A stretch of 64,000 nucleotides of DNA from Escherichia coli (GCF_013315695.1 NZ_CP054353.1); one strand, 5' to 3'. Positions 5,545 to 11,464 are shown, counted from the stretch's first letter. Notes: generated by a model from the sequence alone, not told the origin. Numbers and translations are program-made.

Positions 5545-6750
5545 TTAAACCCCTTTGACAACGTCAGCGTTGACCTGTGGAACCCCGATTTCAGCGGCCA
5601 GATTCATGGCGGCTATCACCAGGTTACTGACGGCCAGCGGATACAGCAGGCTGACCATATTTTTACGATGACTTCCCGGATTGCTCAGGCGGGCACGTAT
5701 GGCATCCACTGCGCTGGCGTCCATAATGTCCGTCAGTTGTTTACCGGCCCGTTGCAGTTTGAACGTCAGAAATTCTTCAAGGTTATTGTCCAGAGGCAGA
5801 AGTTCGACCACCTCACAACGCTGAACGACTTCACGGACTTCCATATTGCGTTCAGACAGTTTTGTCGCCAGTTCCGGCTGGCCAATCAGCACGATGGACA
5901 GCAGTTTTTTGAAACCGGACTCCAGCTCAAAAAAGCGTTTGAGGTGTTTCAGTGTCGGAATGGGCAGACTGTGGGCCTCCTCAATCACCAAAACGTGGCT
6001 GAACCCCGCCTGGCTGCTGTCTTTCAGGACGCGATGCAACTGGCGAAAGCGGGCGTCCTGACTGCGTCTGATGCTTTCCAGTGGTGCGATGGTACTGATA
6101 ATGGCTTCGGCAATCGCTGCTGCCTTCAGGGTTTTCCCTTTCACATCGTTGTCTTCCATAGCGATGATGTATGGCTCGATAACAATTACCGGCGCATTCT
6201 CGCGGTTGATACGTTCAGTCAGGTCGCGGCGCAGCGTGGATTTACCCGCACCGGACTCACCGATGACGGCCATAAACCCACCATGACGGGCTGTCTGGTA
6301 CAACGCCTCACGCACGTAGCGAATGTCCGGGGTGGTGAACACATCATCAGAACCCTGCATGGCTTCATCGGCGAACGGGTCACGGAAAAGACCAAACGCT
6401 TTTTTGGTTGCTGGAAATAACACCTGTTTTTTGAGTAACATATTCTCTTCCTCACTGAGGCTCGTTTTATCTGTGGTACCCGCTGTACGGGGCGTGGCTG
6501 CGCCCTGTACAGCATCAAAACTCTTCGTTGTATCAATCCCCTGACTTTCCAGCCAGGACGCAAGACGCCGGCGCACTTCTCCGGGGCTGGTGCGGGGCCA
6601 CGCGTTATGATTCACAATCTGGGCCAGCGTGGCCTCAGAAACATCGACAGCTCTCGCCACCACCGCCTGTGGGATACGGGCCTCTTTCAGTTGCTGCTTC
6701 AGTACCAGCATGTTTTCCTCCTCAGTTGCCGTTAACAATGCTGATAACAC
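5545..6750 (-). CDS. Transposition ATPase (AAA+; functional analogue of Mu B / TniB-like)
   Basis: 401 aa; Walker A GESGAGKST and Walker B-like HVLVIEEAH; N-terminal HTH-like segment; directly downstream of the transposase. Confidence 0.85.
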   Translation of the reverse strand: MLSALLTATEEENMLVLKQQLKEARIPQAVVARAVDVSEATLAQIVNHNAWPRTSPGEVRRRLASWLESQGIDTTKSFDAVQGAATPRTAGTTDKTSLSEEENMLLKKQVLFPATKKAFGLFRDPFADEAMQGSDDVFTTPDIRYVREALYQTARHGGFMAVIGESGAGKSTLRRDLTERINRENAPVIVIEPYIIAMEDNDVKGKTLKAAAIAEAIISTIAPLESIRRSQDARFRQLHRVLKDSSQAGFSHVLVIEEAHSLPIPTLKHLKRFFELESGFKKLLSIVLIGQPELATKLSERNMEVREVVQRCEVVELLPLDNNLEEFLTFKLQRAGKQLTDIMDASAVDAIRARLSNPGSHRKNMVSLLYPLAVSNLVIAAMNLAAEIGVPQVNADVVKGV

Positions 6751-8491
6751 TGCTGCGTGCCGGCGTGGTCAGCGTGGCCATGACTTCATCCAGTGCAGCT
6801 TCCGGTACGCCGTCCGGGTACTGTGCCGTTAACTGGCGGTAATGTTCCGGCGTCCAGGTAAGGCCGTCGGCGCTGAACTTATCGCGCAGGGCTTTCGCGG
6901 CCTCCACATGAGTCATGGGACGTTGTTCAGTGCGCGGCCCGCGTACGTCAGAGGCCTGACCACGCTTCGGCATATAGGCCGGAAGTGTGGTGTCGTCGAT
7001 ATGTTTATACGGGTCAAGCCGCCCGCCGAACGGCAGCGCCTTCGCCTTGCGTGCGGCGGCTGCATCTGCGGCGTTGTCTGTACCGGTAACCAGCGCTTCA
7101 GTTTCTTTTGCCGCCATCTGTGCCGAGGTTTCCGGCAGGGCTTTGTAACTTTCGCCAAATACCGCCGCGCCTTCAGCAAAGCCAAACTCGTTCTTTCTGA
7201 CCTCTTCGACCAGGAAGAACGTCTCGTGGCCGTCCTCACCGGTCAGAACCACCTGTGCCACATCGCTGCGCCATGGGTTACGGGTAATCATCAGTTTTTC
7301 ACCAACCAGTACGCCCGGTACCGTTGATACGTCAAATTCAGTGCCCCGGAACGAGACACGAAGTTTTGGCGTGACTTTGCGGAGTTCTGGTGCCGCCACA
7401 GCCAGTTCACGACATACCTCAACGGAAGGCGCTTTTTTCAGCTGCTCAGCAGTAATCTTCAGCCAGATATCCGTGCGGGTTTTACCGTGGCGGCTGTGAA
7501 CAGCCGTGGCGTTAAAGTGGCTGCGCCATTTCGCGGCCAGCGCGTTGAGTTCTTCCAGACTGTGAACCGGCCGGAACTTCAGCCCCGGCTCCAGCTTGCG
7601 TTCGATAATGTCACGCGCCTTTTCCACCTGTCCGGTGGCGCGGGCGTTATGCGGCTTGTGCGCTATCAGGTCGATGCCCAGTGAGCGGCACATGTTTTTC
7701 GTCATACCCGCGGTGTTTGCCGAGCCGGGGTCGAGATAGAGTATTTTCGGCACGCCGTGCAGCACGTCTGCGCCGCCACGCTCCTGCATGGCGTTGATAA
7801 GCACAGAGCACAGGTTCTCACCTGATTCCGCGCCCGTCACATACTCAACGTAAATCCAGCCGCTGGCATGGTCGGTAATCTCGTAACTCCACACGCGGTC
7901 ACTGGCGATACGGGCAAGGTTAGCGGGCTTGTTCTTGTAGAACTTCGCGCTGTCCATCACCTGCAGCCCTTTATGTCCATTGCTCAGGTAGTAAAGCGTG
8001 CAGAGTGAGGCGTCAATCTGCCAGACATGATTGGGATGCAGACTGGCCACTTCGGTATGTGGTGCAGGGGCATCCAGTTGTTCCGGGTGCAGGCCATAGT
8101 TACGCAGAGCACGGCTGATGGCATCTTCAGACAACGGGAAAAACTCACTGGTGGTTTCATCTGTTCTGCCTGCGGTGATAAAGCCGTTAGCCCGCAGGGT
8201 TTCCACTGCATCTGCGATGGAATAGAGACGCTTACCGTTCTTGCGGGTGGCCTCACGCAGTGTGGCAGATATCAGCGCGGCTTCGTCGCGGGTCAGGGCG
8301 CTGCGCCCGGCATCGGCGCGTTTTTTGCGTTTATCAGTCACAGAGACCTCCTTCAGCCTGCGCAGCAGAGTGGCGCGGGACATGCCAAGTTCAGCACAGG
8401 CAGCGTCGTATATTGCACCGCGTTTACCATGCCCCGCGTCACGTGCCGCGCGGGCGACATAAACCAGTCGTTCAGTCAGGGCAGCATTCAT
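6722..8491 (-). CDS. DDE transposase (Mu A-like, integrase-core fold)
   Basis: 589 aa; N-terminal HTH, central HVWQIDASL-type DDE core; paired with an AAA+ ATPase gene as in transposable phages. Confidence 0.85.
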   Translation of the reverse strand: MNAALTERLVYVARAARDAGHGKRGAIYDAACAELGMSRATLLRRLKEVSVTDKRKKRADAGRSALTRDEAALISATLREATRKNGKRLYSIADAVETLRANGFITAGRTDETTSEFFPLSEDAISRALRNYGLHPEQLDAPAPHTEVASLHPNHVWQIDASLCTLYYLSNGHKGLQVMDSAKFYKNKPANLARIASDRVWSYEITDHASGWIYVEYVTGAESGENLCSVLINAMQERGGADVLHGVPKILYLDPGSANTAGMTKNMCRSLGIDLIAHKPHNARATGQVEKARDIIERKLEPGLKFRPVHSLEELNALAAKWRSHFNATAVHSRHGKTRTDIWLKITAEQLKKAPSVEVCRELAVAAPELRKVTPKLRVSFRGTEFDVSTVPGVLVGEKLMITRNPWRSDVAQVVLTGEDGHETFFLVEEVRKNEFGFAEGAAVFGESYKALPETSAQMAAKETEALVTGTDNAADAAAARKAKALPFGGRLDPYKHIDDTTLPAYMPKRGQASDVRGPRTEQRPMTHVEAAKALRDKFSADGLTWTPEHYRQLTAQYPDGVPEAALDEVMATLTTPARSSVISIVNGN

Positions 8492-8494
8492 TGG

Positions 8495-9409
8495 TTATGC
8501 CTCCAGCCCGTTAATCTGTGGCGTCGGCTCAGTCAGCCATGAAGGCGCTGCATTGCCTGTTGGCTCGTCCGGCAGGTCAAATGTGGAGCGCAGGCTACGC
8601 GCTGTGCTTTCCAGTTGACAGACCAGGCCTGCCATGAAGTCTCTGGGGGTATCAATCATGTTTTCAGCACAATATGCGCACAGCGTCTCAAAAGCGCTGG
8701 ACAGTCGGACGGCGATAGCAGATTCCGCCTCAACCGCTAATGCTGTTACTTCCGCCCGCAGCTTCTTAACCTCCTCATCAGGCTCAGGCGGCTGAATACG
8801 GGATTTCTTCTCCAGTCTGGTGGAGAGTGAATCTATTTTTTCATTTTTGTCGGCGAGTACGCGCTGTTGTGCTGCGTTGGTTTCGCGCGCTTCGCGCAGG
8901 GCCTGACGCAATTCACGTACTGACATGCGATCAACGTCGTCAAGCGTCAGGCCGGCAACTGTGCCGCCGTCGGCCAATTCATCAAGTTCTTCATTATCCA
9001 GAACCATCAGGTCGTACAGTTTGGCTTTCCCCAAAACGCTCAACGTTGAGCGTTTTGTTGGCTCATCACCTTCTCCCAAAAACTTCATACTGGCTTGCAT
9101 CATGCGGCGAGCAACTTGTGGTGCAAGTCCGAGTTCATTTTCTAAAATGTTTGTAAAATCACCGTGTGGCTCATTTTCTTTTAAGATGATCAGCCGCTTA
9201 CCCGCTTCCAGCATAGATTCAGCACTCTGCGCCATATAAAAACGTGCTTCGTGAACAATGCGATCACGTTCATAAGGCAGTCCATCACCAAACTGCTGCA
9301 TAATTTCCATGCGATGCTGTGTCATAGCGTTCAAATTGACATTGATGTTATCTGACAGCGGAACCTCAACATTCAGTTCAGTGTTAACGGGTGATTTGGT
9401 GCGTCCCAT
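8495..9409 (-). CDS. Hypothetical protein with coiled-coil region, between ner-like gene and transposase
   Basis: 304 aa ORF; heptad-rich central region (..RELRQALREARETNAAQQRVLADKNEKIDSLSTRLEKK..). Not recognised. Confidence 0.45.
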   Translation of the reverse strand: MGRTKSPVNTELNVEVPLSDNINVNLNAMTQHRMEIMQQFGDGLPYERDRIVHEARFYMAQSAESMLEAGKRLIILKENEPHGDFTNILENELGLAPQVARRMMQASMKFLGEGDEPTKRSTLSVLGKAKLYDLMVLDNEELDELADGGTVAGLTLDDVDRMSVRELRQALREARETNAAQQRVLADKNEKIDSLSTRLEKKSRIQPPEPDEEVKKLRAEVTALAVEAESAIAVRLSSAFETLCAYCAENMIDTPRDFMAGLVCQLESTARSLRSTFDLPDEPTGNAAPSWLTEPTPQINGLEA

Positions 9410-9419
9410 TGATTACTCC

Positions 9420-9791
9420 TTACAAACGACTACCTGAAATAACTCGTTGGTTGATTTCGTTAATACGATCCTGTGCACGCGCCATCTCGTGACTGTGAGC
9501 CATGGCGATCTGTAGTAACTGGATTCCCGGTGCGAAACGTCCGTTCTCTAATTTCATGGCCAGTCCCTCTTCAATAAGGGTATTAAGTGCTCGATTGATA
9601 TTCGCCGGGGACTCCCCCAGGGCTGATGCCAGTTCACCGTTAGAAACACCGTTCAGAGCATGACCGCGTAGAGCTTTGAGTACACGTAGGATGCGGGTCC
9701 CAGAACTGGAAATATTTACTTTACTCATGTCACATTTCCATTTTTGCAATATGTGATAACCTGTTGCATATGTGGAAAATTTATGCCGCAT
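9420..9791 (-). CDS. Putative DNA-binding protein (HTH-like)
   Basis: 123 aa; segment LNGVSNGELASALGESPANINRALNTLIEEGL resembles a winged-helix/HTH element. Confidence 0.4.
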   Translation of the reverse strand: MRHKFSTYATGYHILQKWKCDMSKVNISSSGTRILRVLKALRGHALNGVSNGELASALGESPANINRALNTLIEEGLAMKLENGRFAPGIQLLQIAMAHSHEMARAQDRINEINQRVISGSRL

Positions 9792-9969
9792 TTGACGTGG
9801 GTTTTAATCCCAGTTTTACGGCAATTTCATGGGCTTTGCCGTAACGAGCTTTGGTCTGTCCATTGAGAACACGATAGACCTCATTGCGGCTGTAGCCGTG
9901 TTCTTCGGCCCAGCGGGTAAACGTGATACCACGCTGACGGAAGAGATTTTTAACTTGTTCGGAAGTCAT
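9781..9969 (-). CDS. ner: Ner/Nlp-family DNA-binding protein
   Basis: 62 aa; resembles Ner/Nlp family (..TFTRWAEEHGYSRNEVYRVLNG..KARYGKAHEIAVKLG); first gene of the leftward early operon, divergent from the repressor. Confidence 0.75.
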   Translation of the reverse strand: MTSEQVKNLFRQRGITFTRWAEEHGYSRNEVYRVLNGQTKARYGKAHEIAVKLGLKPTSNAA

Positions 9970-10018
9970 TGTTGTCTCCTTTGTTGATGCAATGATGTTT
10001 GTTTTATATGTGATAGAT

Positions 10019-10038
10019 TATGAGAACTATTGTTCTCA
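10019..10038. promoter_or_regulatory. Candidate operator: 8-bp inverted repeat ATGAGAAC-N4-GTTCTCAT between the ner-like and repressor genes
   Basis: Perfect inverted repeat read directly from the sequence in the divergent control region. Confidence 0.35.
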
Positions 10039-10481
10039 TTGTCAATGAGGTTTGTGTGAATTTTGATTCTCTTTGCGCGTCGCGGTTCAAAGCTGAGCGT
10101 TCGCGGTTATCACTCAAGCAGGCTGAAGTAGCAGCCCTTTGTGGCGTTTCAAGAGAAATGTGGGGGAAATATGAACGAGGGGTTGCTGTTCCCGGAGGTG
10201 AGTTACTTGCAGCCTTTGCAAGAATTGGGGCCAATGTACAGTTCATTCTTACCGGGGAGTCATCAGGTATAACTTTATCACGTGATGAAATGGAGTTACT
10301 GCAGCACTACCGGCAGGCACCATTACAGGTCAAAGGTTCAGTTTTGTCGGCCTTGACTACTGGCTCCTCCAGAGAACGGGCGGAACAGGTTATTCATGGA
10401 GATGTTCTGGGGAATGTTATCAAAGGTAACGTAACCATAGGAACAGGTGGAATAATGAACAAAAATACCAAGAGAAGATGA
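10020..10481 (+). CDS. Phage repressor (XRE-family HTH); start codon uncertain, possibly GTG at 10056
   Basis: 153 aa; HTH LSLKQAEVAALCGVSREMWGKYERG; divergent from the early operon as for a c-type repressor. Confidence 0.7.
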   Translation: MRTIVLIVNEVCVNFDSLCASRFKAERSRLSLKQAEVAALCGVSREMWGKYERGVAVPGGELLAAFARIGANVQFILTGESSGITLSRDEMELLQHYRQAPLQVKGSVLSALTTGSSRERAEQVIHGDVLGNVIKGNVTIGTGGIMNKNTKRR

Positions 10482-11464
10482 GTAAAGAGAAGCAAACAGT
10501 TAACGGGGATGTGGGTAACGTTGTCAGCGGTGATGTTACCATTCATAACTATTCTGCTGACATACTTCCTTCGGCCCAGCAACCAATTTCGTTGCTGCAA
10601 AAACGCGATTTACACAGATTGATGGATGAATTGGTTGATCTGGGGGAAAGTAAGCGCGAGCTATGGATGACGATCCACACGAAACTTAATACCAAAACAG
10701 TTAATGAAATGACTGCGGCTGATTATCATGGTGCGGTTGAGATCCTTCAGAGATATGCACAACAGATCCAGAATATGAAGGACTGTAATCTTCTGGTCAG
10801 CAAAATAATGGCGCTTACTGACCCTGGGTATCGTCTTGACCGTGACAGATACTGTCTGAAGCATTTCGGTACAACCCATCTTAAAGGCCTAGACAAAGAG
10901 CAGTTGCAGGCTGTGTTTGGTTATTTTGATGATCTGCTGAATATTCGTGATGAGAGTAAAACTCTATCACCTCCATCGGAAAGCGGTGCAAAATCAGTCG
11001 CAACTGTACCAACCAGAAGCCGGAAGCCTCATGTAGTAGTGTTGGGGGGAGTGTTAGTTCTTGTAGCAATATTTTTCGTGGGAATGATTGTGTTCGCTGG
11101 TAAATGGGGAAATGCCAAAGCAGTAGCTTCTACTGAAACCAGCGTTTTTAACATTAAAACCAACGATAAAATAATAGAAGATTCCATCCCCGCACTGCGC
11201 AGCATGTTTCCAGGGTTAAATAAGTACTCAGATGATTTCCATTCGGTTTCAAGCTACAAGCAAAAAACGGGCTGGCATACCCTTAAATTTACTGTATCAG
11301 CAAAGGCATCCGTCCCCGAAAATTATAGTGTTAAGGGCAAGGTTTGTTACATTAACATAAGCCCTGATGGTAGTTATGCTCGGGTTTTGACTGCTCCATG
11401 TCGTTCACTGCTACTTGATCAGCAAAGCACTCCTGACAGTAAATACCGTTTTATTCTTAAATAG
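10478..11464 (+). CDS. Hypothetical bitopic membrane protein, translationally coupled to the repressor
   Basis: 328 aa; ATG overlaps the repressor stop (ATGA at 10478..10481); single hydrophobic helix VVVLGGVLVLVAIFFVGMIVFAG around aa 186-208; no family recognised. Confidence 0.6.
   Translation: MSKEKQTVNGDVGNVVSGDVTIHNYSADILPSAQQPISLLQKRDLHRLMDELVDLGESKRELWMTIHTKLNTKTVNEMTAADYHGAVEILQRYAQQIQNMKDCNLLVSKIMALTDPGYRLDRDRYCLKHFGTTHLKGLDKEQLQAVFGYFDDLLNIRDESKTLSPPSESGAKSVATVPTRSRKPHVVVLGGVLVLVAIFFVGMIVFAGKWGNAKAVASTETSVFNIKTNDKIIEDSIPALRSMFPGLNKYSDDFHSVSSYKQKTGWHTLKFTVSAKASVPENYSVKGKVCYINISPDGSYARVLTAPCRSLLLDQQSTPDSKYRFILK

Follow-up and report, generated by a model that had tools for sequence, protein, structure and literature searches.

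Repressors of the lambdoid P22 C2 and 434 type act at operators that are dyads with an A/T-rich centre, overlap a lytic promoter, and are present in several copies of differing affinity. In the transposable phage Mu, three operator clusters and an IHF site span approximately 200 bp between c and ner. For Fc02, a phage of the B3 family, strand-specific RNA-seq shows that promoter pE and the ner gene come on once a temperature-sensitive repressor is inactivated; pE overlaps with a promoter pC2, the repressor of the lysogen is also transcribed from a distal promoter, pC1, and the study defines no operators (PMC9936078). No description of the BcepMu operator was found in the literature searched, and the literature search likewise returned neither a published description of the operator discussed below nor an experimental study of its repressor group.

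Here, we describe the control region of a BcepMu-like prophage in a 64,000-nucleotide stretch of Escherichia coli DNA (the window), with positions counted from its first nucleotide. The region separates a leftward ner-like gene from a rightward gene for an XRE-type repressor, and contains a perfect dyad, O1 (10020..10039, no strand), within a predicted leftward early promoter, Pe, and a second, weaker operator-like dyad, O2 (10054..10073, also no strand). From the layout of the locus, its conservation, and its covariation with the repressor, we infer that O1 binds the repressor and serves in repression: with a probability of about 0.85, O1 is the main operator of the prophage's 141-aa XRE repressor, through which Pe would be blocked, and O2 is a second, weaker site.

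The closest solved relatives of the repressor's DNA-binding domain are the N-terminal domain of P22 C2 (E 1.7e-5) and the 434 repressor (E 3.6e-3). Unlike these lambdoid systems, the window element is a transposable phage whose repressor has no S24 peptidase domain, whose half-site (GAGAAC) is different, and which has two sites, one of them inside the repressor's own coding sequence. As in Mu, the repressor gene is divergent from a ner-transposase early operon, there is a second regulator of the Ner type, and early-promoter shut-off is the role expected of the repressor. However, the window repressor is of the XRE type, with no match to the Mu-repressor/MuA N-terminal winged helix in Pfam; two dyads are found by a weight-matrix scan around an intergenic region of just 86 bp (9970-10055), rather than several operator clusters; and no evidence was found for an operator of the window doubling as a transposition enhancer.

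BcepMu has the same gene order at gp16, gp17, and gp18 (ner, XRE repressor, and overlapping gene), and gp17 is 38.5% identical to the window repressor. Its leftward promoter is the same (TTGACA-17-CATACT), with a 7-4-7 dyad in the spacer, GGTATGC-GTTT-GATTACC, and a half-site related to this dyad at the gp17 start codon, although dyad sequence and specificity differ from those of the window. The B3-family phages Fc02 and Ps59 have a ner-like gene that is homologous to that of the window, with similarity at the DNA level, whereas their repressor is only ~36% identical. Ps59 has a short repressor-ner intergenic region with a leftward TTGACA-17-CATTAT, a 7-4-7 spacer dyad, GGTGCCA-AATA-TTGCACC, that differs in sequence from O1, and a half-site related to that dyad at the repressor start; a counterpart of the distal pC1 of Fc02 was not identified in the window. 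Finally, Bacillus subtilis SinR, also XRE-type, has the consensus GTTCTYT (PMC3163267), which matches the right half-site of the window, GTTCTC(T/A), but the half-sites are reversed in the SinR oligonucleotide (GTTCTCT-AA-AGAGAAC), SinR is absent among the significant PDB sequence matches to the repressor, and the resemblance is probably coincidental.

An ST131 chromosome (NZ_CP103742) matches the segment from 9400 to 10500 with 100% identity, and similar DNA is present in 623 of 5,426 complete E. coli genomes, 126 of which cover at least 80% of the stretch. The query matches NZ_CP103742.1 in two places, which suggests that this ST131 genome carries a pair of BcepMu-like prophages whose immunity types may differ. 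The nearest isolated phage is PhiKM, a Bcepmuvirus, and none of the isolated phages in the collection has a repressor at least 60% identical to that of the window.

The early operon lies on the minus strand and begins with the ner-like gene (9781..9969), which encodes a 62-aa protein of the BcepMu gp16 family (PHROG 925 'HTH DNA binding protein', E 1e-32, and RefSeq) and is preceded by a Shine-Dalgarno sequence, AAGGAG, at 9976-9981. It continues on the same strand with genes for an IclR-like winged-helix protein (9420-9728), a DUF3102 protein (8495-9409), and an rve-type transposase (6722-8491), and then an ExeA-family gene. On the plus strand, the stop codon of the repressor is overlapped by a gene for a 328-aa protein (10478..11464; PHROG 10002) that is probably co-transcribed with it; the BcepMu gene in the same position, gp18, is annotated as 'membrane protein'. 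The two genes overlap in ATGA (10478-10481), and the C-terminal residues of the repressor, HGDVLGNVIKGNVTIG, are similar to those with which the downstream protein begins, NGDVGNVVSGDVTIHNY (10420-10540); other repressor homologues end in a GxRIAGRDY motif instead.

O1 is a perfect 8-bp inverted repeat with a 4-bp spacer, ATGAGAAC-TATT-GTTCTCAT (full sequence ATGAGAACTATTGTTCTCAT), of which the best conserved core is GAGAAC-N4-GTTCTC at 10022-10037, and the sequence is unique in the 64 kb with up to three mismatches allowed. A sequence-only reading of this DNA had identified the palindrome correctly in its sequence and its perfection, and had placed it at 10019..10038, one base too far to the left; the overlap that it reported with the first ATG of the repressor ORF is real, the first three bases of O1 being that ATG. 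A consensus scan of both strands from 9700 to 10300 reveals a single sigma-70-like promoter, Pe, on the minus strand and facing the ner-like gene (TTGACA-17-CATAAT), which has 11 of 12 consensus matches and, as a consensus match, is a predicted promoter. The -35 hexamer TTGACA is at 10040..10045 and the -10 hexamer CATAAT at 10017..10022 (both minus strand, from the promoter scan and conservation), and transcription is predicted to start at 10007..10011 on the same strand, approximately 6-8 nt downstream of the -10, where a CA is weakly conserved and alignment positions -10 to -7 show modest conservation. O1 takes up the entire 17-bp spacer of Pe and extends over the first three nucleotides of the -10; read on the opposite strand, the CAT of CATAAT is the annotated ATG at 10020. 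The element therefore has the two-fold symmetry and short central spacer of phage operators and overlaps the core elements of a predicted early promoter. Pe is predicted to drive the ner-like/transposase operon of this BcepMu-like prophage of E. coli ST131.

Related loci from genome and viral contig collections numbered 105 and were reduced to approximately 75 non-redundant control regions, of which about 70 (69-70) were used in the analyses. They span Enterobacterales, Pasteurellaceae, Pseudomonas, and Burkholderiales; according to the genome records, the hosts include Pectobacterium, Brenneria, Lonsdalea, Photorhabdus, Orbaceae, Actinobacillus, Glaesserella, Pseudomonas, Microbulbifer, Azonexus, Acidovorax, Methylotenera, and Burkholderiaceae. 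Across 69 non-redundant loci, a 29-bp block composed of the -10, the dyad, and the -35 (ATTATGAGAACnnnnGTTCTCnTTGTCAA) has mostly 1-2 bits per position, compared with 0.1-0.7 bits in the DNA to its left, and is more conserved than the repressor's own coding DNA. Within it, the -10 positions of Pe have 1.5-2.0 bits in 69 loci, with conservation dropping abruptly to the left, and TGTCAA, the complement of the -35, has 0.9-1.8 bits per position; the central spacer of the dyad is A/T-rich and less conserved than the arms (69 loci). No convincing rightward promoter for the repressor was found by the consensus scan of 9700-10300, and the proposed circuit is incomplete without one. Two candidates, an extended -10 (TGaTAGATT, 10011-10019) and TATTGT at the dyad centre, were set aside, both being weak and neither receiving support from conservation to the left of the block.

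The longest repressor ORF extends from 10020 to 10481, and RefSeq/PGAP starts the repressor at ATG 10020 (WP_001571568.1, 153 aa). We re-annotate the gene as 10056..10481 (plus strand), encoding 141 aa from a GTG start, with a Shine-Dalgarno-like GAGG at 10047..10050 (plus strand), 5 nt upstream. The sequence-only reading had suggested just such a downstream start, and the suggestion holds: besides the GAGG, most homologues among 104 relatives from a protein search are 139-143 aa long with the N-terminus MNFDSLC, and the O1 ATG is unusable in 52 of 70 loci, being out of frame with the repressor in 36 and followed by an in-frame stop in 16. The conserved start has a Shine-Dalgarno-like motif ahead of it in 66 of 70 loci, whereas the O1 ATG has one in 12 of 70, and in one relative (L041, 94% identity) the site reads ATGTGA, with a stop directly after the ATG. 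Conservation across 10020-10055 is without three-base periodicity in about 70 loci, and the ner-to-repressor distance, which is 92-100 bp in E. coli prophages of three other immunity types, is 86 bp in the window with the GTG and 50 bp with the ATG. These comparisons support GTG 10056 as the real start and the annotated ATG 10020 as wrong, the latter evidently being conserved as part of the -10 hexamer and the operator, not as a translation start. In the window itself the ATG is in frame and open, and it may possibly see minor use on a distal-promoter transcript of the kind reported for Fc02.

The repressor is of the XRE/Cro-CI helix-turn-helix type (Pfam HTH_31, E 4.7e-7; HTH_3, E 8.5e-5). 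Pfam searches detect the helix-turn-helix alone, with no C-terminal S24 peptidase domain in either the 141-aa or the 153-aa form, and RecA-driven self-cleavage is therefore not expected; PF00717 is present in a few distant repressor homologues.

The gene divergent from the repressor encodes a Ner-like protein in most of the related loci and an unrelated ribbon-helix-helix protein in many enterobacterial ones, and the same GAGAAC dyad adjoins either kind of partner. The dyad arms vary symmetrically, with base 5 of the half-site being A/A in 57 loci and T/T in 12, and the variants correspond to the recognition helix of the repressor. SRE[M/I/V]W helices are associated with A at position 5 (GAGA-A-C) in 112 of 112 half-sites, and SRE[T/S]W helices with T at this position (GAGA-T-C or GAGATT) in 25 of 28; RREMW goes with GTGCAC and SRVMW with GATAAC. 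One locus (L103) breaks the rule, having SRESW with GAGAAC. Because the half-site variants track the repressor helix, not the partner gene, the dyad is best read as the repressor's operator and not that of Ner. The covariation events are few, with approximately four half-site classes and many loci related by descent, and the covariation is supportive, not decisive, in favouring the repressor as the ligand.

A similar conclusion is suggested by heteroimmune relatives within E. coli. Four prophage types have ner and the sequence as far as the -10 in common and diverge beyond it, such that the break in homology falls at the -10 of Pe; in about 490 E. coli genomes the prophage is ~83% identical to the window, only up to base 10021. 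In all four, the leftward promoter has the same geometry, and its 17-nt spacer contains a dyad whose arms are 4 bp apart: the O1 dyad in type 1 (the window and strain MS20645), TGCTCAT-AATT-ATGAGCA in type 2 (PhiKM and EC958), GTGCAGA-TTAC-CTCAC in type 3 (ZH063), and TATCCCA-AAAA-TGGGATA in type 4 (A20). Every type encodes a distinct XRE repressor, with ~27% identity to that of the window in types 2-4, and type 3 has a further copy of its dyad, GTGCAGA-AAAA-CTCAC, immediately upstream of the repressor ATG. The Ner proteins of EC958 and ZH063 are identical (WP_000123378.1), but their dyads are different and their repressors unrelated. Because the dyad is swapped together with the repressor, it behaves as expected for an immunity determinant, and operator specificity travels with the repressor both among the four immunity types and in the pairing of helix residue 4 with half-site base 5. 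The A20 dyad (L005 3090-3107; TATCCCAAAAATGGGATA) fits TATCC-N8-GGATA, which we take to be the operator consensus of HipB, another XRE-type regulator.

Together, the position of the dyad between the -35 and -10, its exchange along with the repressor, its conservation across genera, and its tracking of the recognition helix support a repressor operator. The sequence-only reading had offered the repressor and the Ner-like protein as alternative ligands; the former is retained, and the latter is disfavoured by the identical Ner with different dyads and by the ribbon-helix-helix partners.

A search for further half-site copies, which had been put forward in the same reading, located the second site, O2 (GTGTGAAT-TTTG-ATTCTCTT; core 10056-10071), which overlaps the GTG itself and covers this start and repressor codons 1-6. 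With a weight matrix built solely from O1 sites at loci with a repressor below 85% identity to that of the window, O1 (at 10020, ATGAGAACTATTGTTCTCAT) ranks first with 31.9 bits, O2 (10054-10073) second with 17.4 bits, and a match at 42334 (AAGTGAACTGCAGTTGCCAT) third with 9.7 bits. A score of 17.4 bits is reached anywhere in 1.3% of shuffled 64-kb windows. The matches at 42334 and at 663 (8.6 bits) are at shuffle level, with 36% of shuffles reaching 9.7 bits, and are not taken as sites; single half-sites with one mismatch are at chance frequency in the window (41 found and 44.9 expected). A half-site copy, TTGAGAAC, at 9863 inside ner was also rejected as an operator and is attributed to coding constraint (VLNGQ), because heteroimmune PhiKM, which uses another operator, keeps the copy.

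In 61 of 70 related loci, the match ranked second across the locus by the weight matrix is placed 31-35 bp downstream of O1. From centre to centre, O1 and O2 are 32-35 bp apart, or roughly three helical turns, and the distance in the window is 34 bp. Third-codon positions have ~1.2 bits within O2 versus ~0.15 further downstream, a conservation that could partly reflect selection on the mRNA 5′ end or the N-terminal peptide. Codon choice is strongly skewed relative to the same amino acids elsewhere in these genes, with TCT for Ser in 56 of 59 (26% elsewhere), TTT for Phe in 54 of 54 (58%), and CTT for Leu in 41 of 42 (15%). Moreover, one wobble position in the right half of O2 changes in step with O1, an A in O1 being accompanied by an A in O2 in 13 of 13 loci regardless of the amino acid encoded, and in four loci in which the start codon has moved upstream (L084, L096, L102, and L104) the GAGAAC-type motif is still there. 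In the type 4 prophage of A20, the palindrome at the repressor start, GACA-AAAA-TGTC, is unlike that phage's first dyad, and the two-site rule is therefore not universal.

Other explanations of the dyad can be set against these observations. Binding by the Ner-like protein, as a Cro analogue, is suggested by the location, since Mu Ner acts in the divergent control region and Ner-like genes adjoin the dyad in most loci, but it is very unlikely given that EC958 and ZH063 combine one Ner with unrelated dyads and repressors, that the GAGAAC dyad also stands beside ribbon-helix-helix partners unrelated to Ner, and that half-site variants follow the repressor's recognition helix; a better candidate for Ner is TGCAATGATG, a motif of the ner leader whose conservation accompanies that of Ner from E. 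coli through to Pseudomonas. The inverted repeat could alternatively act as an RNA hairpin in the repressor mRNA leader, influencing stability or translation rather than binding a protein. The plus-strand RNA does form the 8-bp stem when folded (centroid -13.1 kcal/mol), some of the changes in the arms preserve symmetry, and a distal promoter could read through the element, as in Fc02. This nonetheless seems improbable, because the sequence itself is conserved across distant taxa beyond what pairing requires, uncompensated variants are common (GTGAAC opposite GTTCTC in 12 loci, and a right arm of ATTCTC in 17), O2 repeats the sequence in direct and not complementary orientation, and the variants follow residues of the protein. 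The fold has a z-score of only -1.5, the element is outside the Pe transcript, and Rfam has no credible match within 9300-10700.

A palindrome of this kind is unremarkable alone, because there are about 20 distinct perfect inverted repeats of at least 8 bp (spacer 0-10) in the 64-kb window, and it could be supposed that O1 is a chance palindrome at the true start of a 153-aa repressor, as PGAP picked the ATG and the ORF is open from it. However, when the 86-bp intergenic region is shuffled, such a repeat arises in just 0.5% of cases, and the location and the conservation in related loci lift the palindrome above chance. With conservation over ~70 loci lacking codon periodicity, the ATG out of frame or stopped in most of them and seldom preceded by a Shine-Dalgarno-like motif, and both substitutions seen in the extension in near-identical copies being non-synonymous (R to G and C to Y), coincidence is extremely unlikely. 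A host-factor site is scarcely credible: the core does contain GAAC-N4-GTTC, which resembles the Gram-positive LexA box (Cheo box), and three loci read CGAAC-N4-GTTCG, but the site is found in hosts from the Gamma- and Betaproteobacteria, the recognition sequence of E. coli LexA is CTGT-N8-ACAG, and the site is swapped with the phage repressor and covaries with that repressor's helix.

Several other motifs are present in and around the early operon. The motif TGCAATGATG(TTTG) at 9984-10002, between the predicted Pe start and the ner ribosome-binding site, is kept wherever the partner is Ner-like, from E. coli to Pseudomonas (ATGCAAAGATG), including loci L007, L016, L019, L027, and L113, and is a candidate Ner-binding site or leader element. 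A direct repeat flanking O1, CAATGATGTTTGT (9990-10002) and CAATGAGGTTTGT (10043-10055), was not accepted as a pair of Ner sites because types 2-4 lack the right copy while retaining the same Ner. The ner/IclR-like intergenic region (9735-9781) has an imperfect 20-nt inverted repeat, and has in common with the early promoter start region (10000-10019) an exact 10-mer, ATATGTGATA (9749-9758 and 10006-10015), and a 20-nt stretch of 75% identity; this may be a repeated regulatory motif or a counterpart of the distal repressor promoter of Fc02. A 52-aa ORF (9829-9987, plus strand) is antisense to the whole of ner and is open in PhiKM (L002 2928-3086) despite ~83% DNA identity. Fc02 has overlapping antisense genes opposite ner and gene 10 (PMC9936078), which the ORF recalls, and it may instead be a simple consequence of codon structure.

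There is also a perfect 26-bp palindrome, CAAAACGCTCAACGTTGAGCGTTTTG (9032-9057), inside the DUF3102 gene on the minus strand. Five diverged E. coli versions (e.g. CAAAACGCTCAGCGCTGAGCGTTTTG, TAAAAGCGACAACGTTGTCGCTTTTG, and CAAATGTGCCAACGTTGGCACATTTG) remain self-complementary at 24-26 of 26 positions via symmetric changes while the peptide varies, and similar palindromes of 22-30 bp with AAA/TTT flanks are found 0.8-1.5 kb from O1 in Pectobacterium, Photorhabdus, Glaesserella, and Methylotenera. It looks like a conserved DNA- or RNA-level element, and may be more unusual than the operator.

We propose that a dimer of the XRE repressor, on the two GAGAAC half-sites of O1, would cover the Pe spacer together with part of the -10, denying RNA polymerase access to the early genes, the ner-like gene and the transposase gene among them, a shut-off by which lysogeny and immunity would be maintained. 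Binding at O2, 34 bp away, would most likely contribute cooperativity, negative autoregulation, or both. This operator logic is that of classical phage repressor/operator systems and is ordinary phage biology, with the modest twist that an operator is embedded in the first codons of its own repressor gene. The balance of probability tips slightly towards a broader view, in which Pe, O1, O2, and the repressor constitute one portable immunity cassette. Such a cassette would have moved between prophages, transposable and other, of the Gamma- and Betaproteobacteria, combining with Cro-like partners of unrelated kinds (Ner-type or ribbon-helix-helix), and it would be chiefly O2 that dictates repressor codons 1-6 (M/V-N-F-x-S-L).

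For annotation, the start of a RefSeq family would be corrected, with WP_001571568.1 and its relatives being 12 residues too long and the 12-residue extension consisting of promoter and operator DNA read as codons. For the prophages, an immunity determinant would be defined for a BcepMu-like element in at least 126 of 5,426 complete E. coli genomes, which would explain the differing immunity specificity among relatives with the same ner module. The pairing of recognition-helix residue 4 with half-site base 5 provides a testable recognition rule for a widespread repressor group, and, if the cassette reading is true, the conserved N-terminus of these repressors would be a by-product of a DNA site for the repressor's self-control.
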